The translations under genes were made by a program, and so were the position numbers. Below are positions 1 to 45,597 of a stretch of DNA of 55,910 bases, piece after piece. Location of the stretch: the IMG/VR virus record IMGVR_UViG_3300036779_000083, positions 1 to 55,910 of that record. One strand, 5' to 3'. Origin of the DNA: a virus. Lineage: Duplodnaviria; Caudoviricetes. The stretch's first letter is position 1. Every line of letters begins with the position of its first letter. The notes beneath the pieces are model-generated. The model did no database searches, was not told the origin of the DNA, and was given only the letters and a program-made list of their open reading frames with translations.

Positions 1-421
1 GACTTAGGCGTGCCCCGACTCGCCCCGCTGTGCTCGGCTTTGCCTAGCCAGCCTCGCCTCGCTACGCCGTGCAAGACCTTGCCCGATACGCCAAGACCAG
101 CTCTGCTCTGCCAGCCTCGACCAGCCACGCCGTGCTTTGCCATACTGTGCAGAGCAGGGACGAGCCCGACAAAGCTGCGCCGAACACTGCCAGCCTCGAT
201 CTGCTACGCCATGCTACGACGGACCGGGACAAGACGAGCCAAACGTTGCCTCGCCAGCCTCGCCAAGCCAGGACTTGCTGTGCTGTGCCATGACGAATCG
301 CGCCGCGCCAGCCTCGATCGGCCGCGCATTGCAAGACCTCGCTTCGCCGGGCCATGACTAACTACGCCAGCTTTGCCACGCTCCGCTATGTAATGCTTGG
401 CTCAGCCGCTCCTGGCCAGCC
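1..421 (-). ncRNA. Pentamer-periodic guide-like RNA array: (GGY/NGC/GTC + NN)n units separated by a 4-nt GGCT; at least 7 units, truncated at window start
   Basis: GCCAGCCTCG-like junctions on + strand at 47,110,189,253,307,366,415 (spacings 63,79,64,54,59,49 = 5n+4 except one 1-nt deletion). Strict 5-nt periodicity between junctions. Lies directly downstream of, and co-oriented with, the RAMP-like operon. Confidence 0.8.
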
Positions 422-454
422 CTTCCTTGCCTTCGACACACCGATCATCCGTTG

Positions 455-476
455 CCTGATCTCTTAAGTGATCAGG
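455..476 (-). other. Inverted repeat/hairpin between accessory gene stop and array (possible processing or leader signal)
   Basis: CCTGATC-N8-GATCAGG overlapping the TGA of ORF 472-996. Confidence 0.45.
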
Positions 477-996
477 TCGCCGGGTGTGCCGCGCCCGGGC
501 CGCCTGCGCGACGCCGAGCGATTTCTTCTTCCAGTCTTTGACGGGCTGCACGAACCATGTCGCAGATCGCCGCTAGGTCGGCGTATCGTGTTTCCCATGC
601 TTCGAGGTCACGCAAAGCAGCAGCTTCGACCAGCCTTTGTAGGTCGCGATTTGTTATGATTTCTCCAGCGCTTCTGTAAGCGGTGCCGATCCCATCACGA
701 ACAGAAACATAAGCATGCGTCGGTTCTTCGATAACCGCGGTCTCGACGTAGATGATGCTGATCAAGTTTCTCGCCTGATCGAGCCGGTATTCCGCCGCCG
801 CTTTTGCGTCGTCCCATTCGAAGTGTTTGTGACACACATGCCGTCGGTTCTGCGCCGCGGTGACGAGATGCTGTGGCTTGAGGCGGCCACCGTTCTCGTT
901 GGTGAGCCGCTCCAATGCTTCGCCGATGGCCTGCGCGTCGGCCTGTTTCGCGTTCTTTAACGGAAGTGGACCGGGCTTAAAACTGTATGTGGGCAT
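472..996 (-). CDS. Conserved phage protein, accessory to the RAMP-like gene and repeat array
   Basis: 174 aa ORF with HKHFEWDDAKAAAEYRLDQAR motif; starts 3 nt after the RAMP gene stop; GGAG RBS. Confidence 0.8.
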   Translation of the reverse strand: MPTYSFKPGPLPLKNAKQADAQAIGEALERLTNENGGRLKPQHLVTAAQNRRHVCHKHFEWDDAKAAAEYRLDQARNLISIIYVETAVIEEPTHAYVSVRDGIGTAYRSAGEIITNRDLQRLVEAAALRDLEAWETRYADLAAICDMVRAARQRLEEEIARRRAGGPGAAHPAT

Positions 997-999
997 GGG

Positions 1000-1875
1000 T
1001 TACTCCGCCGCTTCTGACATCCATTCTGCGAAATAGTCCGATATGTCGGTCTTGGGACGTACGGGCAACGGACCTTTGCCGCGAACGAACTTCATCCACG
1101 ATTCACCCTCTTCCTCGGTGGCGAGATGGAACGCGCCGAACTCGCCGGACTTCTCGGTGCGCCAGTCGCCGACGCCGCACATCACACCAGCATCGCGCAA
1201 CAAGAACAACAGGGTTTCTATCGGAAATGCGTCGGCGTTGAATTTCCCCTGGACGAGGAGAGCCCAGTTTTCGAATTGGGCTCGGTAAGCAAGAGTTGCA
1301 GTTTTGTTCAAACCGGCGCCAACGCGCACCATATCTTCGCGCATTTCCGGTTCGCCAGCGACGATGGGGATCAGCGGCAAAGTGCAGATTGCTTTTTCGA
1401 AGGCGGTTTGAACTCTCGTCATTTGAGAATCAAATTTTATGCTGGCTTGTGACAAAGTTTTCGCAACACCCTTATCTTTATGAGATACCGAGAGAATCGA
1501 CTTCTTCACCGCAGTAACCGGGAAGCCGTACATGCCGTTGCCCATGTCGTAGAGACTCGATATGAAATCGCCGTGGGGGTTGCGTTCCTCACGGCCGCCG
1601 CGCGTGGTCTTCTTTTGTTTTTTCAACATTTCCTTCTTGGCCTTCTCGGACCATGCGTGGCAAATCAGTGGTGTGTCGCCAATCAACCAGATACGGAAGC
1701 GCTTCCAGTTCGCCGGGGTGAGACGGACACCGTCCTCGATATCGGTGAGGGCGCTGCTGCTCTTGGCTTTGCGCTTGGTCGTCGTGGACTTGGCGCCGGT
1801 TATCAAGTCCTTGACCTCGGTGACCTCGACATCGGACTCGATCAGGTTTTCCAGCTTCGTCTTCTTGTTAGCCAT
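1000..1875 (-). CDS. RAMP-superfamily (Cas7/Csm3-like, Vipr-like) RNA-binding protein
   Basis: N-terminal beta-strand IWLIGDTPL, FPVTAVKKSI (cf. iPgsslKGal), C-terminal glycine-rich loop GVGDWRTEKSGEFGAF; AGGAG RBS; no other cas genes nearby. Confidence 0.75.
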   Translation of the reverse strand: MANKKTKLENLIESDVEVTEVKDLITGAKSTTTKRKAKSSSALTDIEDGVRLTPANWKRFRIWLIGDTPLICHAWSEKAKKEMLKKQKKTTRGGREERNPHGDFISSLYDMGNGMYGFPVTAVKKSILSVSHKDKGVAKTLSQASIKFDSQMTRVQTAFEKAICTLPLIPIVAGEPEMREDMVRVGAGLNKTATLAYRAQFENWALLVQGKFNADAFPIETLLFLLRDAGVMCGVGDWRTEKSGEFGAFHLATEEEGESWMKFVRGKGPLPVRPKTDISDYFAEWMSEAAE

Positions 1876-2090
1876 GACATGGTGCTCCTGTGAAAATAGG
1901 GTCGAGGCGAAAACACCTCATCTCTGTCAGTGCACATTACAAACTCGTTTGCAAGCACGGGTTACAGCGACTATACCAATGCACAGGGCCGGATCACACC
2001 AACGTATAATGCGAGCTTACAGTTCACCTGACTACACGTAACGACACCTAACAACTCCTAACAACATCCGAGGACTTCCGAGGACTTTCG
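1876..2090. promoter_or_regulatory. Divergent control region between RAMP operon and cro-like gene
   Basis: AT-richer intergenic region; TTGCAA(1949)-N17-TATACC(1972) promoter-like on +; 10-bp-periodic repeats at 2037-2086. Confidence 0.4.
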
Positions 2091-2360
2091 ATGAGCGCCA
2101 AAAAGATGCCGACTCCGCGCACCCCGCCGGGTCGTCGCCCCGAGAACCCGCCGACCGATGTGACGAAAATTCGCACCGCCGATCAGGCGCTCGACTACGT
2201 CAAGACCGCCGAGATCGAGCTGGTGATCCGCAAGGCTTGCGGTGGAATCTCACGTCCAGCTGTGCTCAACTGGCGTCGGATTCCGGCAGAGCATTGCCCG
2301 GCGATCGAGAAGGCGACGGGCATCCCCCGCGCGATCCTGCGCCCGGACATCTACAAATGA
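2091..2360 (+). CDS. Cro/YdaS-like HTH transcriptional regulator
   Basis: GISRPAVLNWRRIPAEHCPAIEKATGIPRAILRPDIY signature. Confidence 0.8.
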   Translation: MSAKKMPTPRTPPGRRPENPPTDVTKIRTADQALDYVKTAEIELVIRKACGGISRPAVLNWRRIPAEHCPAIEKATGIPRAILRPDIYK

Positions 2361-2374
2361 AAAGGAAGCGGGCC

Positions 2375-2809
2375 ATGGTCGACGACACCAACGCCATCAC
2401 CCAGAAGCAAGTCGAGCCGTTCATGAGGAAGGTCGAGTCCTTCCTCCGTGATCTCGAAAGCGAGCGCGGCGCCTACATGAACCGCTGCAAGGGACTTCGG
2501 ACGGCGATCGAGGAGACGCTCGACGATGCCAAGGCCGCCGGCCTTCCGAAGGCGGTGATGAAGGCAGCAATCAAAACCTTGGAGCTGCAGCGCCGAATCA
2601 ATAAGCTCCGCGCCAAGCTCGAAGAGGATGCCGCGCTCGAACACGATATGATCATTGCCGCAGTCGAGGGGATGGAAGATTTGCCGCTCGGGATCGCAGC
2701 CGTCGAGCGCGAGAAGCGGGAGGCCGCCGAGCGCAAGCTGCGTAAAAGCCGCAAGCGTAGCGCAGCGGTCGACAAGCTGGCCGGCGAGGGCGACGAGGTG
2801 ATGCATTGA
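2375..2809 (+). CDS. GapR/DUF2312-like DNA-binding protein
   Basis: FMRKVESFLRDLESER...DDAKAAGLPKAVMKAAIK pattern resembles DUF2312; alternative start 2357. Confidence 0.55.
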   Translation: MVDDTNAITQKQVEPFMRKVESFLRDLESERGAYMNRCKGLRTAIEETLDDAKAAGLPKAVMKAAIKTLELQRRINKLRAKLEEDAALEHDMIIAAVEGMEDLPLGIAAVEREKREAAERKLRKSRKRSAAVDKLAGEGDEVMH

Positions 2810-2931
2810 GCGGCTGGATGCTCCGACGAGAGCCGTGGCAGCTCGTTCTGATGGGTGCGCTCGCCGGAGTATTGATGTTTGGATTGGGAATGTGGGTCGG
2901 CAGTTGGCATTGAAAGAAACGGGATGAAAAA

Positions 2932-3297
2932 ATGACACTTCTCGACGAGGTAATCGACTTTGCACAGCGCAACGCGGAAGCGGCAAAAATCCATTGGGAT
3001 CGCGAGACGTGGCAGGTCCACCACGACAAGTGCGTCAAAGTCCGCGCCGAGATCACCAAGCTGTGCTCCGAACTCGCCGAAGTAAAAGCTGCGCGGGCAA
3101 CTGAATGGGCCGGCTTCAAGACGGCATGGGATATCCAAGCGAGCGCGCTAGAGGCGGCCCTTGCTGAAGTCGCCGACCGGAATCGCAGGATTGCGGAGTT
3201 GGAGCGCGAGTTGTTAGTCGGATGGGCCGTGAGCCTCGCCGACCGGGACCGGCGGATAGCGCAACCCAAGGCGTTCACTGAGGAGGAAAATTCGTGA
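2932..3297 (+). CDS. Hypothetical coiled-coil protein
   Basis: 121 aa ORF; GTGA overlap with the next gene. Confidence 0.6.
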   Translation: MTLLDEVIDFAQRNAEAAKIHWDRETWQVHHDKCVKVRAEITKLCSELAEVKAARATEWAGFKTAWDIQASALEAALAEVADRNRRIAELERELLVGWAVSLADRDRRIAQPKAFTEEENS

Positions 3298-3299
3298 AG
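3236..3299 (+). repeat. 64-bp direct repeat copy 1 (copy 2 at 10691-10754)
   Basis: 63/64 identical; contains the GAGGAGG RBS and GTG start. Confidence 0.9.
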
Positions 3300-4322
3300 C
3301 TTCCAGAGAGATATTCCGCCGCCCGCAAGGCGCTCGCCGCCTGTGTCAAGATCGACGAGGTGAAGAGCATTCGCGACAAGGCGATGGCGATGGAGACCTA
3401 CGCGTTCCAGGCCAAGGACGGCCAGTTGATCGCCGAGGCCACCGAGATCAAGATGCGGGCGACCCGGCGCATCGGCGAGATGATGGCCGAGCAGAAGGCG
3501 ACCGGGGTCAGGGCGAAGGGCGGCCAGCGCAAGCGGGGACCTGATACCCCGATCACTCTCGCCGATCAGAAGGTCGACAAAGACCTCGCCAAGCGGGCGC
3601 GCACGCTCGCCGAAATGTCAGCGAAGGAATTCGAAAAGCGGATCGACACCGCGATCACGCTGGCGACCGCTTCAACCTCTGGCAACAGCGAAGTCGTCAA
3701 GCTTGCCCGGGCCGAGCGGCAGAAGGAGAAAAAGACCAAGCGAGCGAAGCGCCAGCGCCAACTCGCCGCCAAGATCAAGAACCTCCCCGACCGCCGCTAT
3801 GGTGTGATCCTGGCCGATCCAGGCTGGCGTTTCGAGACCTATTCCGAAGAGACCGGAATGGATCGGGCGCCGGAGAACCACTACTCCACCGAGGAGACCG
3901 TCGACATCCGCAAATGGCCGGTCGTGCACATCGCCGCCGACGATTGCGCGTTGTTCTTGTGGGCGACCGGGCCGATGATCGAAGATGCGCTCGACGTGAT
4001 GCGGGCGTGGGACTTCACCTACGTTTCGCAGTTTTGTTGGGACAAGGAGGTCGCTGGCCCAGGCTATTGGAATCGCGGCGAGCACGAGCTGCTATTGGTC
4101 GGTACCCGCGGCAAAGTGCCGGCGCCTGCGATGGGCGATAACTTCAGCTCGATGATCCGCGAGAAGAAACGCAAGCACAGCGAAAAGCCGGAGAAGGCTT
4201 ACAAGATCATCGAAGCCTATTTCCCCGATCTGCCGAAGATCGAGTTGAATCGCCGCGGTGAACCACGCGACGGCTGGGATGCCTGGGGCAATGAGGCCGA
4301 AGAAGCGCAGGCTGCCGAATGA
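3294..4322 (+). CDS. MT-A70 family N6-adenine methyltransferase with helical N-terminal domain
   Basis: YGVILADPGW, HY, CALFLWAT, HELLLVGTRG, HSEKP, KIEL, GWDAWGNE motifs. Confidence 0.85.
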   Translation: MKLPERYSAARKALAACVKIDEVKSIRDKAMAMETYAFQAKDGQLIAEATEIKMRATRRIGEMMAEQKATGVRAKGGQRKRGPDTPITLADQKVDKDLAKRARTLAEMSAKEFEKRIDTAITLATASTSGNSEVVKLARAERQKEKKTKRAKRQRQLAAKIKNLPDRRYGVILADPGWRFETYSEETGMDRAPENHYSTEETVDIRKWPVVHIAADDCALFLWATGPMIEDALDVMRAWDFTYVSQFCWDKEVAGPGYWNRGEHELLLVGTRGKVPAPAMGDNFSSMIREKKRKHSEKPEKAYKIIEAYFPDLPKIELNRRGEPRDGWDAWGNEAEEAQAAE

Positions 4323-5317
4323 CGATTGCGTCTGGAAAAACAGCGGCGGTGATTCCGCTACGCGGTCGGAAAGTCCAGCACTACAACCCGGAGAAAGGAC
4401 TCCGCAAGATCGCCGCCGCCAAGGCTGGCGAGGAGCGTGCTCGCCGCGCTCGCGATGCCGAGGGTATGTTTCGTGAGATCGTCAAGAAGCTGAAAGCCCA
4501 GGCCGCATACATCGTCTGGCGCGACGCGGCGATGGCGGCTGTGGTGAAGCTGCGGGGTGGAAAGGGTGGAAAAGACAGTGGTCACCACTCAGGGAAGAAG
4601 GGTGCACTCTCGCCAGTGAGAGTGCACTTACCTGACGCCGATCCCGGCGAGAAGACCGCCCACCGCTGGCGCCGCGACCTCTGCTCGAAGGTCGACAAGG
4701 TCACCGTCGTCGACGAGGCAAAATTTGCGCTGGCCGCCGACGACGCCAAGAACCGGGCGCTGCGCGCCTGCGAACGTCAATCGAAGGGCACCGAGCGCGG
4801 CACCGCTGGCACCGGAGAGTTTGAGCGCTACACTCCGCCGCAGTACATCGAGGCGGCGCGCAAGGTACTCGGCGAGATCGATCTCGATCCGGCGACCAGT
4901 CCGATGGCGCAGAAAACGGTGAGGGCCAAGCAATTCTTCACCGAAGATACCAACGGCCTCGATCGTGAATGGCACGGCCGGGTGTGGCTCAATCCACCCT
5001 ATCATCGCGATCTGGCACCGGCCTTCATCAGCAAGTTGGTGGCGGAGATCGAAGCTGGCCACGTGACCGCCGCCGTCATGCTCACCAACAACTCGACCGA
5101 CACCGACTGGTTTGATACGGCGCTGCGCGCCTGTGCCAGCGTATGCTTCACGCACGGGCGTATCGCCTTCACGACGCCGCCGATCGGCACTGAGGTTGAC
5201 CCGACACAAGGGCAGGCGTTTTTCTATTACGGCGACGATCCGACTCGTTTCGAGGACGTGTTCTGTGTCATCGGCTCGTGCGTGCGCCCGAGCCGACAAT
5301 ATGTTGAGGTTGAGTGA
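4319..5317 (+). CDS. Phage Dam-like DNA N6-adenine methyltransferase
   Basis: YTPPQY, IDLDPA, GL-EW-GRVWLNPPY, GRIAF motifs. Confidence 0.85.
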   Translation: MTIASGKTAAVIPLRGRKVQHYNPEKGLRKIAAAKAGEERARRARDAEGMFREIVKKLKAQAAYIVWRDAAMAAVVKLRGGKGGKDSGHHSGKKGALSPVRVHLPDADPGEKTAHRWRRDLCSKVDKVTVVDEAKFALAADDAKNRALRACERQSKGTERGTAGTGEFERYTPPQYIEAARKVLGEIDLDPATSPMAQKTVRAKQFFTEDTNGLDREWHGRVWLNPPYHRDLAPAFISKLVAEIEAGHVTAAVMLTNNSTDTDWFDTALRACASVCFTHGRIAFTTPPIGTEVDPTQGQAFFYYGDDPTRFEDVFCVIGSCVRPSRQYVEVE

Positions 5318-6075
5318 TGGATACGTTTGTCTGCAAAGACTGCGGTTACAAAATAAATGTACCGCTTACGATCGGGGATGTGAACATCTTTATGAGGCAT
5401 CTACCATTCGGTTATGATGGTTTTCTGCATTGGGAGTACATCAACAAAGCCTTCCCTCGGACGATCACCGGAAGTGATATTGATCTGGCAACTGACATCG
5501 AAAGTCGATTTCGCGACGCTGCCACCATGCTCACGTTCGAGACGACCGACAGTGCCAGTAAGTTTAATCGTAATGAGCGCGGCGACGAGAGTGGTCAAAT
5601 GCGAATGTTTGACCGCCTGATCCGCCGCGGATTTCACCATCACTTCGACATTGTTGGAAAAGAAATTCCGACCAGATGGCGACATCGTTGTTTGGCGAGC
5701 GATGGTTCGGTTTACAGTACCGGCTGGCGCTCTTCAGCAGATGAACGTGTAGCAATCGCCAATGAGGTAAAGCTCATTGCTAGAAAGGCCGATGGTTTGA
5801 CAAAGGACAAATTTGATTTTGGTATTTTGAAAAACACTTGGGCAATTTCCAGTGCATCAACACGAAAGCGATTCGCTGAGTTCATCAAAGAGAATTTCGA
5901 CTATCGTCCGCCAAAAGAGCCAGCGCCAAGCACGGCCAATGAAGCGATTAGAAATGATAAGGTTTTCGAGTACGTCACCGGCAAAGACGAGCAACCGTCA
6001 CCGCCACCGCCGCTAGCTCCACCGCCACTGCCGCCCGATGATAATCGCAACCTACTGAGTTTTTTAGATGTCTGA
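5314..6075 (+). CDS. Hypothetical protein (lower GC, CxxC N-terminus, possible PD-(D/E)xK-like core)
   Basis: 253 aa ORF visibly AT-richer than its flanks; SDIDL...TFE pattern. Confidence 0.6.
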   Translation: MMDTFVCKDCGYKINVPLTIGDVNIFMRHLPFGYDGFLHWEYINKAFPRTITGSDIDLATDIESRFRDAATMLTFETTDSASKFNRNERGDESGQMRMFDRLIRRGFHHHFDIVGKEIPTRWRHRCLASDGSVYSTGWRSSADERVAIANEVKLIARKADGLTKDKFDFGILKNTWAISSASTRKRFAEFIKENFDYRPPKEPAPSTANEAIRNDKVFEYVTGKDEQPSPPPPLAPPPLPPDDNRNLLSFLDV

Positions 6076-6406
6076 TGTCAGCTACGACGGCCCTATCAAG
6101 CCCGGGCTTCGCTTCATCTGGGAGCCCGGCAAGCCTCACGCGCACGAACTGATCGAGGTTGTGCGCGTGAGCGATACTGGCGACATGGTGCGGTCCAGAG
6201 CCGTCGGCGGTATCGAATATTGGAACGACGTGTCGCGCTTCCGTGAGTCCGTCGTTCCGCTGCGCTGCTATCTCGACAATGATCAGCCGTGCCGGGCCAC
6301 CATCTTGGAAGCGTGTTTGTGCGGCAGCTATGCGAGTTGGTACGTCTATGAGCGAGATCGAACGCTGGCCAAAGCGAGTAGTGATCTACCCACGAGCGCT
6401 CGCTGA
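6068..6406 (+). CDS. Hypothetical protein
   Basis: 112 aa ORF in a tightly packed operon. Confidence 0.5.
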   Translation: MSDVSYDGPIKPGLRFIWEPGKPHAHELIEVVRVSDTGDMVRSRAVGGIEYWNDVSRFRESVVPLRCYLDNDQPCRATILEACLCGSYASWYVYERDRTLAKASSDLPTSAR

Positions 6407-6617
6407 GCTGATCAAAGAGCATGGCGGCTACGACAACATCACGCCGGAAGCCTGGGCCGCGTGGGATCGTCTTCAACAGGAATGGCGCGTGCGGCACGGC
6501 AGCGATCAAACGTGCGTCTATGTGAACAAGGACGGTTCGGTCTATAACCCAAACCGAATCGATCTGCGTGGCACGCCCTATGAGCGATCCCGACGAGCTG
6601 GACATCCTCGCGCTTGA
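6348..6617 (+). CDS. Hypothetical protein
   Basis: Fills the gap before the resolvase; start uncertain. Confidence 0.4.
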   Translation: MSEIERWPKRVVIYPRALAELIKEHGGYDNITPEAWAAWDRLQQEWRVRHGSDQTCVYVNKDGSVYNPNRIDLRGTPYERSRRAGHPRA

Positions 6618-7119
6618 CCTCGCCAAGCGCACCGGCTGGGCGCGCGGGCGTCTCGACAGCGAAGCGCCCACCTTCGGCTCGATCAGCTTCGGCAAGGATG
6701 GCGCCAGCAACTACGCGCGCTTCGCCCATGCGCTGCGCTGGGCCGTCGATATTTTCAAGAATGATCCGCCCGATGTACTGGTGATCGAAGCGCCGATCTC
6801 GGTGCAGGCATTCAGCATGCAGCAGGGCGCGAAGATTCTCTTCGGCCTGCCGGCAGTGATCACCGGTGTCGCCTATGAGTGCGGGGTGTTCACGATCCAC
6901 GAGTACGACGTGCGCGACATCCGCGGCATGTTCACCGGGCATCGATCGCTGAAGACCGATATTGCCAAGGCAGCGACGGTGCGTCGGTGCAAGCAACTCG
7001 GCTGGAATGTCGAAGATCACAACGCCGCCGACGCCTGTGCTCTGTGGATGTATCAATGCGCCCGCGTCCATCCTGGCCCAACATTGCGGCGGTTGGCGTC
7101 GGTCGGCATCTGCGTCTGA
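6580..7119 (+). CDS. RuvC-like Holliday junction resolvase
   Basis: ILALDLAKRTGWA, VLVIEAP, DHNAADACAL motifs. Confidence 0.8.
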   Translation: MSDPDELDILALDLAKRTGWARGRLDSEAPTFGSISFGKDGASNYARFAHALRWAVDIFKNDPPDVLVIEAPISVQAFSMQQGAKILFGLPAVITGVAYECGVFTIHEYDVRDIRGMFTGHRSLKTDIAKAATVRRCKQLGWNVEDHNAADACALWMYQCARVHPGPTLRRLASVGICV

Positions 7120-7338
7120 AATTTTATATGTCTTGACTGTGACGCCGACTCGGATGCACGCTCAGCGAGTCGGCTGCTTTTCAAGCACTAAAAAGTGTGG
7201 CCCCCGGCGACGCAATCACCGAGGGCCAGAGAGGTAGAAGGCACACGGGTCTAAACGTGGGTCGCGAGACCCAGGTGCCCGCCGGACCAGAGGTGACAAC
7301 TCTGGGCGACTTCACGATCGGACACGGAACGTCCAACC

Positions 7339-7680
7339 ATGCACAACATTCCACATAATTCAATTCAGAGCGTCGCGCAACCCGCGCACCCACCAACTAT
7401 AGCTTTAGACGCAGACGCCTGGATCGCCGCCGTCGCCGTCGATTCGCGTGTCACCCACGCGTCATTCAGGGTCGCCTACCACCTCGCCCGCCAGCTCTAC
7501 TCCCCTCACATCAAAGAGCTTCAGCCTACCGTTAAAGCGTTGGCGCGCCTCACGTTTGCCAACGAGATCACGGTGATTAAGGCGATCTGCATCCTCGAAT
7601 CGATCGGCTTCCTGCGCTGCGAGAGGTTCTTCTCGCGCCACCGGCCGAACCTCTATTTCCTCAAGATGCCGGAGCGCTGA
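7339..7680 (+). CDS. Winged HTH DNA-binding protein
   Basis: PTVKALARLTFANEITVIKAICILESIGFL...PNLYFL. Confidence 0.65.
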   Translation: MHNIPHNSIQSVAQPAHPPTIALDADAWIAAVAVDSRVTHASFRVAYHLARQLYSPHIKELQPTVKALARLTFANEITVIKAICILESIGFLRCERFFSRHRPNLYFLKMPER

Positions 7681-7682
7681 CC

Positions 7683-8438
7683 ATGGCCCTACGCCACGTC
7701 GTGCACGTGCTCGACCACCTCACGATCGAGGACAACGGCCAATTTCGTGTCCTGATCTCGCTCGCCGAATGGGCGCACAAACAGACCGGCGTCGTGCCGC
7801 CCTACCCGATCGAGGAGCTTCGACAACGGGCGCAAATGAGCAAGGCTTCGATCTATCGCAAGCTCGCCGAGCTGGAAGCCGACGGCCTGATCGAATGGGA
7901 GGGGCAACGAGACCGTCGCGGATGGAAAGTGCCGCCAACAATCCGGTTGAAATTTGCAACTATGGACGAGGAGTCCAAGTCTCAAATTGAGACTAGGGGT
8001 CGACGGCCTAGTCTCAAATCGGCCGAGCCTAGTCTCAAAAACGGGCAGCCTAGTCTCACTGTTGAGACTACATATAAAGATCAAGAATCTACCAAGACTC
8101 AACCAAGTAAAAGAGATTCTTCGGCGACGTTGTTTGACGAGCCACAACCGGCACAACCCAAGCCGTCGGCGACCTTCGATCAATTCTGGGCGATCTATCC
8201 CAAAAAGCGCGCCAAGGGCGCAGCTCGCAAAGCCTGGGACAAGGCAGTCGCCAAAACCGATCCCGCCAAAATCCTGTCCGCAGCCGTCGCCTACGCGAAG
8301 TCGCGTGCCGCTGCCGATCCGAAGTTCACCAAGTGGCCGCAGGGCTGGCTTGCTGATGAACGCTGGGACGATCAACCAGACCTGCCGTCGGCAGATCGGC
8401 CGATCGGCGTTCGTGTCGTAACTGACGGGATCATCTGA
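7683..8438 (+). CDS. Phage replication initiator (N-terminal HTH, C-terminal FDQFWAIYPKK domain)
   Basis: MSKASIYRKLAELEADGLI HTH; FWAIYPKKRAKGAARKAW; internal iterons. Confidence 0.75.
   Translation: MALRHVVHVLDHLTIEDNGQFRVLISLAEWAHKQTGVVPPYPIEELRQRAQMSKASIYRKLAELEADGLIEWEGQRDRRGWKVPPTIRLKFATMDEESKSQIETRGRRPSLKSAEPSLKNGQPSLTVETTYKDQESTKTQPSKRDSSATLFDEPQPAQPKPSATFDQFWAIYPKKRAKGAARKAWDKAVAKTDPAKILSAAVAYAKSRAAADPKFTKWPQGWLADERWDDQPDLPSADRPIGVRVVTDGII
7978..8070. repeat. Iteron-like repeats, putative replication origin
   Basis: GCCTAGTCTCA at 8006, 8027, 8048 (21-bp period); inverted TGAGACTA at 7988 and 8063; AGTCTCA at 7978. Confidence 0.7.
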
Positions 8439-29014: not shown

Positions 29015-30079
29015 ATGAGCCTTGCCTTCGACGCGAGCCGTCGATCGGTTGATCCGACCGGCACCTCGAAGCTGCGCGGCAAATTTCGAAGCGATCTGCA
29101 ACTGCGGCTTCGCATGCTGCGGGCACAGCTGCGGGTCGCCGTTGTGGAGCATGATGTTCTTGCGTTGGGTCGCGGCGGCATCATGTCTTACCACCCGCCG
29201 GACGTACGCTTGCGCGCATTCAGTCACTGGCTAGAGGTCGCGGTCGCGAGCCTCGTCGCCGGGCATTGGGTGCGCAATTACATCATGCATGCGTCCGAAG
29301 CTGGCGTGGCGGCAGCGGTGAAGGAGTTGAACCTCGGCACCGCTGCCGTCCGTCAAGCATCATCGAACGACCTGCTTGAAGAGCAGACCGTCAACGAGAT
29401 CGTCGGCATCGGCGACGCGATGATCCAACAGGTCACCCGCTGCGCCATGGTGGTGATCCGTCGCGGCATGAAGGCACCGAAAGCTTACGCTATGTTGGCG
29501 TCGGCGTTCGAGAAGGTGGCGCTGTCGCGCACCAAGTCGCTTGCCGACACCGCGGTGGTTGCTGCATATAATGGCGGCAAATTAGATGTGTACGAAGCTG
29601 CTGGGATTACCCACGTTGGGGTCGATCCAGAACTAGAAGGGCGACCGCATGAACGGTCGCCCTCCCGTCGTCCTGGCCAGCCTCGCCTAGACGTGCTTCG
29701 CCAGAACTTGCCGCGCGTGGGCTTGCAAAGCCGCGACGTGCCACACAACGGCGATTCAGTATCTACCACGGAGGTTGGAATTGACCCAGAAATTCATCCA
29801 GGGACCCTACGGTCCGATACCAGTGACGCAGCCACCGGCCACAACCGTCCGCCTGTCAAGCGCCGCCGTTCTCGGTGGAAGGCCGAAGCAGTTGGTGTCC
29901 GTACAGCCGGGGACGAGAAAGTTTGCCTCACCTGCGAAGCTATTGCCGAGGACGCGCCTTACACGACCGCTGAGGCGCGGGAGCTGATCCCAGCTCACCC
30001 ACACTGTCGCTGCAGCGTCTTTCCATGGTTCGACAAACGATTTCGTCGTGACAGTTCATTGGCTGGCGGGCTGTCATGA
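29015..30079 (+). CDS. Minor head protein, SPP1 gp7/Mu gpF (MuF) family
   Basis: DPTGT N-terminus; TAGDEKVCLTC...IPAHPHCRC. Confidence 0.75.
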   Translation: MSLAFDASRRSVDPTGTSKLRGKFRSDLQLRLRMLRAQLRVAVVEHDVLALGRGGIMSYHPPDVRLRAFSHWLEVAVASLVAGHWVRNYIMHASEAGVAAAVKELNLGTAAVRQASSNDLLEEQTVNEIVGIGDAMIQQVTRCAMVVIRRGMKAPKAYAMLASAFEKVALSRTKSLADTAVVAAYNGGKLDVYEAAGITHVGVDPELEGRPHERSPSRRPGQPRLDVLRQNLPRVGLQSRDVPHNGDSVSTTEVGIDPEIHPGTLRSDTSDAATGHNRPPVKRRRSRWKAEAVGVRTAGDEKVCLTCEAIAEDAPYTTAEARELIPAHPHCRCSVFPWFDKRFRRDSSLAGGLS

Positions 30080-32416: not shown

Positions 32417-35400
32417 ATGAACGTCGCGGCACCCAATATCTTGCGCTTCCCACGCGCGTGGTTCGACGCTACGCGTGACAGCTTTCAGAACTTCCTCGCT
32501 GGCTTTGGTGTGCCCGGCCGCGACAAGTCGGTATCGCAGTTCTGGTGGTATTGGCCGCTCGATGTCCAGCAGCTCGAAGCCGCCTATGCCAGCGATTGGG
32601 TGGCGCGCAAGATCGTCGAGATACCGGCGTTCGATGCGACGCGCTCATGGCGGCTATGGCAGGCTGACAAGGAGGATCAGAAGAAGATCGAAGAGGCCGA
32701 GCGCCAATACAATCTGCAGCGCAAGCTGCTCGATGCACTGATCAAGGCGCGGCTCTATGGCGGCTCGGCGATCATCCTCGGCGTCAACCAGGGCACGTTT
32801 CAGGACGAGCTGGAAATCGACAAGGTCGGCAAGGACGATCTCAAGTTCGTCCATGTGGTGAGCCGTTACGGGCTCGCCGCCGGCCCGACGGTGAAAGAGA
32901 TCACTTCGCCGTGGTACGGCCACCCGACCTACTATCAGCGCGCCAATGTGGTCACGGTTGCGCCGCCCGGTGGCGTCGAGCCGATCGGCGAGCCGACCAT
33001 GGGGCAGCTGCCCGGCGACATGCTCTACATCCATCCATCGCGCGTGATCCGGCTGATCGGGCTCGATTACCCCGACGTGGAGCGGGCGCCAGATGCGTGG
33101 GGCATCACCGTGCTGCAGCCGGTCGCTGACGCGCTCAAGTCCGCCGGCATGGTGACCTCGTCGATGGCGGCGATGATCGCCGAGGCCAAGCTCGACATCA
33201 TCAAGGTGCCCGGGCTCACCGCGAAGATGCAGACCGCCGAAGGCACCCAGAATGTGCTTAGCCGGTTCATGCAGACCAACGTCGCCAAGTCGAGCATCAA
33301 CGCGTTGCTGCTCGACAAGGAGGAGGAATGGGAGCGCCATCAGCTGCAGCTCGCCAACTACGACAAGGTGCTCAGCTCGTATTTCCTGCTGTGCTGTGCC
33401 GCCGCCGACGTTCCGGCGACGCGGTTCATGGGCCGCGAGCCGGCCGGGCAGAACGCTACCGGCGACAGTGACACCAGAAATTATTACGATCGCCTCGCCT
33501 CCGATCAGAAGGTGCGCCAGACCCCGGCGCTGCGTCCGCTCGACGAGGTGTTGCTGCGCTCGACCTTCGGCAGCCGCGACGACGCATGGCGCTACGACTG
33601 GAATGCGCTGTGGCTGATGTCGGACGCCGAGAAGGCCGATGTCGAATTGAAGAAGGCGCAGGCGCACAAGATCGATGTCGACGCCGGGCTGCTGTCGCCG
33701 CACGTGCTGCAGATCGGCCGCGAGAACTCGCTCGTCGAGTCGGGCTTCCTGTATCCCGGCATCGAGTCCGCGATCGAGGACGAGGCCGATTGGGACGCCG
33801 AGGAAGGCGTCGCCGAGGCGCGCACAAAGGGGCAGATGGACCCCAATGATCCCGACGTGATCGCCGCCAAGAGCAAGGCGATGACCAAGGGCATGCAGCA
33901 AGCCGGCGGTAAGCCGGGGATGCCGTTCAAGCCCGGCGGCAAGCCCGGCGGCCGGCCCAACGGCGGCAAGCCGAACGGCGGCGTGCGTGATGCACGCCGC
34001 AATCCTTTCCGCCGTCTCGCCCGTCTTCGTGACGCGCCACCGCCACCGCCAACTTTCGTCCCCGAGCTGCATCCGCACGATCCCAAGACCGGCCAGTGGG
34101 CGACCACCGTTACCGGCGATCCGCTGCAGATGAACCCGGAGGTGGTGAGCGTTGGTGGTGATGCGTGGAATCAGAAGACCGGGGCGCGGCTTGAATTCGA
34201 GTATGCGCGCATCAAGCCGCTACTCGACAAGCTCGCCGGTGATCTCGTCGCGGGCCGCGCCGAAGATGTGCCGGACGAGGACGAGGACAAGGATCAACCT
34301 TACGTTCCCGAGAGCTGGGATGAGCTGTCGAGCGATCAGCAGGAAGAGGCGAAGACCAAGTGGAAGGAGGCGAGCTTCTCCGAATACAAGGACAGCGAAA
34401 TCCAGAATCAGTATGACAGCGGCTACATGCTCGAACAGGGCAAGCGCGACACGTTGGAAGAATGGAAGGACGCGCCGACCAAGCACTCGACGGTGAGTGG
34501 CGAGACGCTGGAATGGCCGGACTGGGCGAGCGAGGCGATCGACGAGGTGATCGACGAGCATGCCGAGGCTGGCAAGCGCCTTCGCTTCACCAAGGATCAA
34601 ATCCTCAAGGCGCTGACGATCGACGCCGGCAAATACGGCGAGTTCGGTGGTGACGGCAGCGGCGATCCAAATGTCGACTTTGACGATAGCGAGCTGACCG
34701 ATCCGGCCGGCTATGATCCGAGCGAAGTATTCCCCGGCTTCGAGAAGCTAGAGCCGTCGAGCTTCCTCACCGAGGACCAGCGCGACGACATCATCAAGGC
34801 GATTACCGACGCTTTCAACAAAGAGGGCGACAGCAAAGCCGACAAGCTCGATGCCTCGGATTACATCGACGAGAGCAGCATCGACGACTATCAGGACGAA
34901 TCCTGGGAGCACAGTTTCTCGGACCAGCAGAAGTGGGAATACGCCGAGCAATATCTGGAGCTGGGCGAGCAGGAGAGCCATCGCGAGACGCCGGAGCCGA
35001 CTCAGGTGGTGATGCCAGCGCACTTCGATCCGATGGGCGATCCCGACGCTGACGATGATTACAAGAACGACCGCGACTATCAGAACACCAAGGCGCTCGG
35101 CCGTGCGATGTCGATCGCGCGGGCGGTGGAGGTGAGCAAGGAGCGCGGCATCGACACCGACGAGGCGACCGTTCGCGACATGGACTCGACGCTGTGGCGC
35201 GACTGGAAGTCGTCATCGACCTCGCCAAATGGCAAGCTATTGCAGCTCGCCATCGCCGACGAGCTGGGCGGGCGCCTGCATGAGGAGCGCATCGGCAATC
35301 CGGCCGATGTCGAGCGGACGAAGCGTGAAGGCAACAAGTGGGGCGGCTACGACGCGGTGAAGGCTTACATCCGCGGCAAGTGGGAGACCACGCAATATCT

Positions 35401-45500: not shown

Positions 45501-45597
45501 GGTTTAGCCCAGCCAAGCCGTACCACGCAAAGATTGGCCTGGACATACCCGTCCTTGACGCAGCTCACATAATCGATCTGACCGGAGGTTGCAAGCT

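Follow-up and report, generated by a model that had tools for sequence, protein, structure and literature searches.

What kind of system do a Cas7-like gene, a small companion gene and a run of five-base repeats with a non-contiguous code form at the end of a phage contig? The locus lies in IMG/VR virus record IMGVR_UViG_3300036779_000083 (Duplodnaviria; Caudoviricetes), whose 55,910 nucleotides are called the window here, and an earlier note, made from the letters alone, had described positions 1 to 1,875 as a candidate RNA-guided system. We identify the locus, with a probability of roughly 0.88, as a VIPR (Viral Interference Programmable Repeat) system of a tailed soil phage, consisting of the effector gene vipr, the accessory gene vap and a staggered array of guide units (vrRNAs). 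The earlier note had also pointed to a likeness to phage VIPR systems with a GGY/NN code, and rightly: VIPR has been published with exactly that code and with the one-base-skip rule. Because the kind is already published (preprints of 2026), the locus adds a member, and novelty of kind does not stand.

According to the available part of the discovery preprint (10.64898/2026.04.26.720920), VIPR consists of a stand-alone Vipr RAMP protein, usually with one vap gene; the vrRNAs are built of alternating GGY/NN units or a related consensus, and double-stranded DNA is recognised with one base skipped per unit. The systems comprise seven types, are mostly phage-borne and are aimed at competing mobile elements, and their array architectures include 'staggered arrays with overlapping vrRNAs', with a 1-nt overlap (legend of fig. 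S18). In the accessible text of the cryo-electron microscopy preprint (10.64898/2026.04.26.720927), each GGY is held jointly by two adjacent protomers, and thumb and G-loop residues R138, C173, D177, W178 and R179 of the Vipr of Escherichia phage SUSP1 hold the GGY bases. The arrangement of one protomer per scaffold triplet, proposed in the earlier note, gives way to this structure. The present locus has every sequence-level feature of VIPR and of its staggered form, and it lies in a viral genome: the virus record carries terminase, portal, protease, capsid, baseplate and tail genes.

The pentamer array and its two genes

Read by coordinates, the minus strand from 421 to 1 consists of consecutive 5-nt units of three constrained and two free bases, which bears out the parse of the earlier note. 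The 83 pentamers are distributed over eight units of 10, 12, 11, 13, 16, 6, 7 and 8 pentamers. Their entropy at positions 1 to 5 was 1.35, 0.78, 0.59, 1.95 and 2.00 bits; position 3 was C in 73 of 83 and position 2 was G or T in 81. The most frequent scaffolds were GGC (36), AGC (18), GTC (10) and TGC (5), that is, mostly RGC or GKC, and a strict GGY occurred in 39 of the 83 units (47%). The in-phase score of the array was 51, compared with 22.0 ± 2.2 (maximum 29) for 1000 shuffles and a maximum of 34 among 1101 other 421-nt segments of the contig, and period-5 Fourier power was concentrated at positions 1-440. A vrRNA is recognised by at least four tandem 5-nt units with a conserved scaffold and hypervariable NN beside vipr, and here there are 83. 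The whole record is one contig of 55,910 bases with a coding far end, and the contig of the probable source run likewise stops, at window position 2; the array is therefore cut by the assembly end.

The units are not separated by spacers but share single bases. The earlier note had closed each unit with a 4-nt GGCT; it is better to read the last pentamer as GGCTG, its final G doubling as the opening G of the next unit, and with this 1-nt overlap every unit length is a multiple of five. The junctions read GGCN-GGC. The register step between adjacent in-phase runs was -1 in all four cases in the window; for the window together with 77 related loci it was -1 in 182 of 197 cases, 0 in 13 and +1 in 2. 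Consecutive vrRNAs thus overlap by 1 nt, as in the published staggered arrays. The final two pentamers of a unit vary little (xxCGA GGCTG in five of the seven complete units) and are therefore a handle rather than guide, which revises the view that units are guide to their end. Unit 6, to which a 1-nt deletion had been ascribed, is better split into two short units (6a, 112-83; 6b, 83-49), whose junction resembles the usual one minus five bases. The long invariable pseudoknotted 3' tail of type II VIPR is absent: the units abut and are constant only over their final two pentamers (10 nt). A search of positions 1-2500 against Rfam gave no match, and a promoter scan of the minus strand gave nothing useful.

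The two open reading frames (ORFs) that accompany the array, 1875-1000 and 996-472, are as the earlier note described them. The first encodes a stand-alone RAMP protein with an RRM core, G-loop and thumb, and its assignment to the RAMP/Cas7 proteins held by both sequence and fold. The sole significant match among PDB sequences was SUSP1 Vipr (36pp_D, E 6.5e-7), which a 28-sequence profile of the homologues matched at E 1.9e-7. R198, C233, D237, W238 and R239 align to R138, C173, D177, W178 and R179 of SUSP1 Vipr, so that the GGY-holding residues are present, and G234, G236, W238 and R239 are invariant in the 28 homologues; the counterpart of SUSP1 H17 is probably the invariant H73, in a region outside the alignment. 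The AlphaFold model had a mean pLDDT (predicted local distance difference test) of 72.1, with the N-terminal ~55 residues poor. Its best Foldseek match, in the comparison with Cas7/Csm3 that the earlier note had suggested, was Csm3 (E 3.9e-4), and its nearest folds include Csm3/Cmr4 and Cas7-11 (type III, RNA-targeting). The protein had no family in Pfam, NCBIfam or PADLOC and belongs to PHROG 4652, 'unknown function'. The vipr family numbers 2730 proteins at E <= 0.001 among 4034 candidates.

A vap homologue follows vipr in 60 of 78 loci (the window, 26 viral, 6 genome and 45 metagenome loci). The vap protein belongs to PHROG 15946, likewise labelled 'unknown function'; it had no family in Pfam, NCBIfam or PADLOC and no match among PDB sequences (best E 0.19), and an Atlas search returned unnamed viral clusters only. 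Its AlphaFold 2 model (pLDDT 91.8) comprises an alpha/beta domain at the N-terminus and, towards the C-terminus, a long helix (aa 117-164). By tblastn against named phages, vap matched 31 records, from Mycobacterium phages (27), Gordonia phages (3) and a cyanophage (1), but no Escherichia, Salmonella or Shigella phage among those that bear vipr homologues, so the vap of this locus is probably not vap1. PHROGs 4652 and 15946 are thereby shown to be Vipr and a Vap family.

The locus is thus minimal, with vipr and one vap and without a CRISPR array or other cas genes. No cas gene, and in particular no cas1/cas2 or multi-subunit effector, was found among 68 window ORFs compared with PHROGs or 15 compared with PADLOC, the contig being a fragment of the phage, and the 15 ORFs scanned contained no defence family. 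No CRISPR repeat-spacer array with identical 24-48-nt repeats was found at the array. The earlier note was accordingly right that this is not a CRISPR array and that cas1/cas2 are not in view.

Table 1. Positions of the array, the genes and other features of the locus in the window.
Feature	Positions	Strand	Description and basis
Staggered vrRNA array	1..421	minus	pentamer parse, register steps and the same layout in relatives; cut by contig end
Array units 1 to 5, 6a, 6b and 7	417-368, 368-309, 309-255, 255-191, 191-112, 112-83, 83-49, 49-10 or beyond	minus	one base common to neighbours
Guide part of unit 1	378..417	minus	8 variable dinucleotides; predicted anti-vipr guide
Guide part of unit 5	122..191	minus	14 variable dinucleotides; antisense in codon register: [HQ]TV[FL][IM]V[DE]G[DE]R[KN]A[DE]L
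vap	472..996	minus	174-aa accessory protein; begins 3 nt past vipr stop
vipr	1000..1875	minus	291-aa Cas7-like RAMP protein; core aa ~54-255; N-terminal ~55 aa Lys-rich, low model confidence
G-loop codons C233-R239 (CGVGDWR)	1159..1179	minus	aligned to C173...D177-W178-R179 of SUSP1 Vipr
Guide 1 site in own vipr, codons T68-W75 (TPLICHAW)	1652..1674	plus	15/16 informative positions
Terminator-like stem-loop with T-run, vipr leader	1903..1920	minus	consensus scan; ~28 nt upstream of start codon, just upstream of ribosome-binding site
Cro/YdaS-type helix-turn-helix (HTH) gene, divergent, bordering locus	2091..2360	plus	Pfam YdaS_toxin E 5.7e-10; PHROG 35, transcriptional repressor

The predicted stem-loop in the vipr leader could be either an attenuator or the point where a transcript from upstream ends. 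Window 2025-2091 holds two sets of 10-nt direct repeats (~4.2 and ~2.5 copies) directly upstream of the divergent HTH gene; as an upstream vrRNA they were rejected for this position and their period of 10, and they probably form operators or other regulatory elements in the interval that separates the HTH gene from vipr.

Two short runs elsewhere in the window resemble the array. Seven in-phase pentamers at 29678-29712 (minus strand) end in a GGCGA-GGCTG-G handle as in the array units; they run antisense inside a head-morphogenesis gene and are a weak solo-guide candidate. Five GGY-like pentamers at 45505-45529 (minus strand), in a 128-nt gap between two baseplate genes, have the top period-5 power of the contig outside the array and reach the published minimum of four units, the run being very short. 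As solo guides, 29712-29678 and 45529-45505 were not upheld beyond chance: array 11-mers occurred elsewhere in the window 35 times, which is within the range of the shuffled controls (mean 20.6, maximum 39).

One soil metagenome run, from another study, contained contig pieces 95-99% alike to window 375-1167, which span vap, the 3' part of vipr and the covered part of unit 1 (375-417), with no change listed in the latter. A near-identical phage therefore occurs elsewhere.

Candidate targets of the guides

Guide 1 matched its own vipr at 15 of 16 positions only when one base was skipped per unit; skips of 0, 2 and 3 gave 12-13. This agrees with the gapped NNxNNx reading in the earlier note and with the published one-base-skip rule, and of 1000 base-permuted versions of guide 1, two reached 15/16 at some place in the window. 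The matched stretch coincides with the units before the handle, leaving the two handle dinucleotides unmatched. The skipped bases are third codon positions, and the one mismatch, in the L70 codon, is U opposite C and not a wobble pair. The matched TPLICHAW (T68-W75) is the most conserved stretch of the vipr family. In the 77 related loci, guide 1 matched at least 13/16 at 56 places, compared with a shuffled-guide mean of 3.3, and all 14 of the best rows inspected (at least 14/16) were at the vipr motif and antisense. The best matches seen as DNA were the own gene and L029 (L and P numbers are our labels for loci and proteins), both 15/16.

A perfect target of guide 1 must encode T-P-[IM]-[IM]-[CW]-[HQ]-A-[WC]. 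Among the 120 closest homologues, the motif was TPLITHAW in 85, TPLIVHAW in 13, TPIITHAW in 9, TPLICHAW in 6, TPIIVHAW in 3 and TPIICHAW in 1, with two others at 1 each and one protein without the motif. The single TPIICHAW belongs to P0002, the nearest relative (84% identity); since all eight residues fix the first and second codon bases, the P0002 gene must match guide 1 at 16/16. Given this perfect match to the nearest relative and the one true mismatch on the own gene, the most likely role of guide 1 is to disarm a rival's VIPR, and we put at even odds the specific claim that it is an anti-VIPR guide against the vipr of the closest rival phage. Our fuller proposal is tentative: guide 1 would silence that vipr at its most conserved RNA-binding motif, a single U.C mismatch (L70 vs I70) would spare the own gene, and the -1 step would delimit the guides. 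If this is true, self and non-self are discriminated by a single base, the arms race takes place inside the effector gene itself, and the -1 register step, not a structured tail or ribozyme, delimits guides in staggered arrays.

For guide 5, the viral collection was searched with two 8-unit seeds, which occurred at 34 and 15 places and were then extended. The 34 places of the first seed gave 22/28 at best. The best full-length matches were 24/28 in L126/L169 and L133/L170 and 22/28 in L128, and 22/28 was also found in L131, L105, L107, L116 and L118. In L126, L133 and L128 the matches are antisense and in codon register on HTVFIVEGEKDAD/HTVFIVEGEKAAN of 620-687-aa ORFs, those at 24/28 being on HTVFIVEGEKDAD of 632-687-aa primase/helicase ORFs. 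The matched ORFs belong to Pfam AAA_25 and PHROG 239, 'DNA primase/helicase', and their EGExD and DxD motifs suggest that the matched motif is Toprim-like; the phage's own primase/helicase has a different motif. Guide 5 predicts ...EGERKA.. and not ...EGEKDA.., so that genes of the L126/L133 type are at best relatives of its target. Most likely, guide 5 is aimed at the putative Toprim-like motif of the primase/helicase in a competing integrative, satellite-like element.

The whole records L169 and L170 (11.8 and 13.1 kb; fragments, with CheckV completeness of 24-29%) are compact elements with genes for integrase, head decoration protein, head-tail adaptor, capsid-protease, portal, large terminase and primase/helicase, and with no tail gene. 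This is the gene set defined for capsid-forming PICI (phage-inducible chromosomal island) satellites in PMC10085698, which L169 and L170 resemble.

Candidates for the other guides were rejected. The seed of guide 2 occurred at 26 places (best 19/20) with extension at chance, and its 19/20 places are two unrelated gene kinds, a small ORF with two transmembrane segments and a ribbon-helix-helix-like ORF. Guide 3 had three exact 18/18 places, all short ORFs and about the chance number, and a 15/18 match in four related loci that was within the control range. Two seeds of guide 4 reached 19/22 at best, which is at chance.

The skip rule was also examined across the family with sliding 8-unit guides from all arrays (821 distinct), matches of at least 15/16 being counted in other loci with arrays masked. 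Real and shuffled guides gave, respectively, 3 and 5 matches with skip 0, 43 and 12 with skip 1, 10 and 7 with skip 2, and 67 and 8 with skip 3; the skip-3 count is due to array-to-array homology, and the loci include near-duplicates, so that the counts are not independent events. The matches fall on both strands.

In a 42%-identity subclade (L011, L012, L014, L015, L030 and L051-L054), a separate 8-unit pentamer run lies ~2.9 kb downstream of the vipr start. This run matches the corresponding place in L013, L017, L055, L010, L049, L050 and L059 at 15/16 or better with a 1-nt skip, which suggests that the subclade runs are guides against the relatives' neighbouring genes.

Beyond the anatomy, the homology and the in-silico target matches, which are shown here, we infer by analogy to SUSP1 how expression, processing, DNA binding and silencing would proceed. 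The array would be transcribed together with or just after vipr-vap. Vipr protomers would polymerise on the RNA in a 5-nt register, holding three scaffold bases, which in this array are mostly RGC or GKC rather than strict GGY, and presenting the two free ones. Each guide would end in the constant two-pentamer handle, and the -1 register step, that is, the 1-nt overlap with the next guide, would end one filament and begin the next. Each ribonucleoprotein would then bind double-stranded DNA, reading NN-x-NN-x, and block transcription.

Weighing the evidence

Several observations weigh against the identification or against parts of it. The array is more degenerate (39/83 GGY) than the published consensus and most relatives, and a search of sequencing runs listed no RNA run as holding the locus. 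Confirmation by small-RNA sequencing is stated, in the available part of the discovery preprint (10.64898/2026.04.26.720920), for ribozyme-type and single-vrRNA forms and not for staggered arrays. The 16/16 match of guide 1 to P0002 is deduced from the protein motif and the genetic code, not read as DNA, and the exact guide 1 pattern occurs at seven places in the viral collection, none of them a vipr gene. The guide 5 match comes from seed-and-extend, with 8 of 12 extension bases matched among 15 seeds; at up to three mismatches, guide 5 had no match in the Tianweitania genome to which L027 belongs, nor in 401 genomes from the same order, and none of the other guides among 2-7 matched the two elements with the guide 5 match. 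Guides 2, 3, 4, 6a, 6b and 7 had no target above chance, and the one-base-skip targets are in-silico matches of two guides, six of the eight being without an assigned target. For vap, Foldseek gave nothing at E <= 0.001 (rows at E 0.3-1.8, mostly winged-helix DNA binders), and a wide structural search with its model returned coiled coils only.

The observations on guide 1 could also be explained by autoregulation, in which the guide binds its own vipr coding sequence and damps vipr-vap, the matches in relatives reflecting motif conservation. The own-gene score of 0.94 exceeds the 0.8 cut-off at which the authors call targets, and the best matches seen as DNA are the 15/16 ones in the own gene and L029, no 16/16 vipr target having been seen as DNA. 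We nevertheless consider autoregulation less likely than the rival reading, because the mismatch falls on the sole residue of the 8-codon footprint that differs from the nearest relative (L70 vs I70), so that the guide fits the relative, and because a U.C mismatch forms no wobble pair. In addition, the published clades, within the accessible parts of the source, are without self-targeting at 80% or more, and their anti-VIPR guides score lower on self than on non-self. Silencing of a rival's vipr thus remains our preferred account of guide 1. In both credible matches, those of guides 1 and 5, the guide runs antisense to a coding sequence and would be complementary to the target mRNA, and the closest folds of Vipr are the RNA-targeting type III Csm3/Cmr4 and Cas7-11, so one might suppose that the system acts on RNA and not on DNA. 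However, the published Vipr binds to double-stranded DNA, with silencing whichever strand is targeted, a strand bias cannot be established from two guides, and the family-wide matches fall on both strands; action on RNA is very improbable.

The 47% of GGY scaffolds, the damaged 6a/6b junction with its 5 nt lost and the six of eight guides without target would also fit a decaying relic with drifted scaffolds and non-functional guides. This is improbable in view of positions 2 and 3 being kept in 81 and 73 of the 83 units, of a register held over 420 nt, and of intact vipr and vap with conserved catalytic-contact residues; moreover, frequent internal degeneracy in functional vrRNAs is noted in the available part of the preprint (10.64898/2026.04.26.720920), and the 95-99% alike pieces of the second soil study (375-1167) list no change in the unit 1 part. 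It is hardly credible that the pattern stems from protein coding, from a CRISPR array or from chance composition: ORFs of 97-118 aa do overlap the array region, but they match no family, and a coding region would not have a period of 5. A repeat-spacer structure is absent, and Tandem Repeats Finder did not detect the array, giving only short 9- and 14-nt rows. The in-phase score is above all shuffles and all other segments, and the pattern recurs downstream of vipr-vap in relatives with different NN bases. We conclude that a VIPR system best accounts for the locus.

Relatives, phage setting and comparison with known systems

Pentamer arrays were called in 63 of the 78 loci. They are almost always downstream and on the vipr strand, and the layout is common to relatives while the NN bases differ. 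By tblastn, vipr homologues were found in 144 named phage records (Escherichia 75, Mycobacterium 27, Salmonella 13, Shigella 8, Felixounavirus 6, Gordonia 5, Enterobacteria 5, Citrobacter 3, others 2). In Gordonia phage UmaThurman (NC_031249.1, ~33354-33649; L195 3075-3370), a staggered GGY/NN array covers the hypothetical coding sequence gp40. This sits between gp39 and gp41, in the interval that separates the Vipr and Vap homologues, and probably does not encode a protein. In Mycobacterium phage Brocalys an array takes up the gap upstream of gp45-gp46.

The window encodes two methyltransferases, a RuvC-like resolvase, a replication initiator, a primase/helicase and an endolysin, together with the large terminase, portal, protease, major head protein and baseplate and tail proteins. 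The two DNA methyltransferase genes (type II-like, orphan-like) are adjacent, at 3294-5317, beside the early region. A blastn search of positions 1-8000 against named phages gave no match. The nearest vipr homologue in a named genome is that of Tianweitania sp. (54%), and further genome homologues occur in alphaproteobacterial metagenome-assembled genomes (MAGs), one gammaproteobacterial MAG and a Blautia MAG; the nearest genome homologues (Tianweitania and the alphaproteobacterial MAGs) make an alphaproteobacterial soil host likely.

VIPR was first described in 2026, and the locus offers a compact and clean example of its staggered form, with two genes and eight guides in under 1.9 kb and a large family behind it (2730 homologues). 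It bears on the one-base register step as guide punctuation and on mismatch tolerance (own 15/16 vs rival 16/16). Because the gene pair with arrays also occurs in cultured Gordonia and Mycobacterium smegmatis phages, tractable laboratory models exist.

Among known systems, Cas7 backbone subunits (Csm3, Cmr4, Cas7-11 and type VII Cas7) resemble Vipr in their RRM core, G-loop and thumb, in the placing of one protomer per fixed step of guide RNA and in periodic base flipping. Unlike class 1 CRISPR effectors, the locus has no CRISPR repeats, cas1/cas2 or other cas genes (the contig being a fragment), and the VIPR step is 5 nt with three bases sequestered, gapped pairing and a double-stranded DNA target. 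As described in the available part of the discovery preprint (10.64898/2026.04.26.720920), staggered VIPR is alike in its phage-borne stand-alone Vipr and vap, in its tandem same-strand 5-nt units, in the 1-nt guide overlap and in having no ribozyme or long tail between guides; here the scaffold is mostly RGC/GKC, with GGY in 39/83.

Type II VIPR of Escherichia phage SUSP1 and a Pseudomonas fulva prophage (PDB 36pp) has a Vipr homologous to this one, with G-loop and thumb residues in common, and shares the GGY/NN logic, the 1-nt skip on third codon positions and targets in competing mobile elements. The SUSP1 vrRNAs are separate RNAs of ~100 nt with an invariable pseudoknotted 3' tail, whereas here the guides abut, with a 10-nt handle and 1-nt overlap, and Vipr has 291 aa with an N-terminal extension, compared with 202 aa in SUSP1. 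The guides of the SUSP1 family that target vipr or vrRNAs (10.64898/2026.10.15.759431) are, in the text available, likewise directed at a rival's VIPR machinery with a self match below the non-self match, and likewise at conserved codons, where a synonymous change cannot escape. The vipr-targeting guides described there are solo vrRNAs on phages that lost vipr; here, in contrast, the predicted anti-vipr guide is the first array unit of a VIPR-positive phage, and self is one base off the best target.

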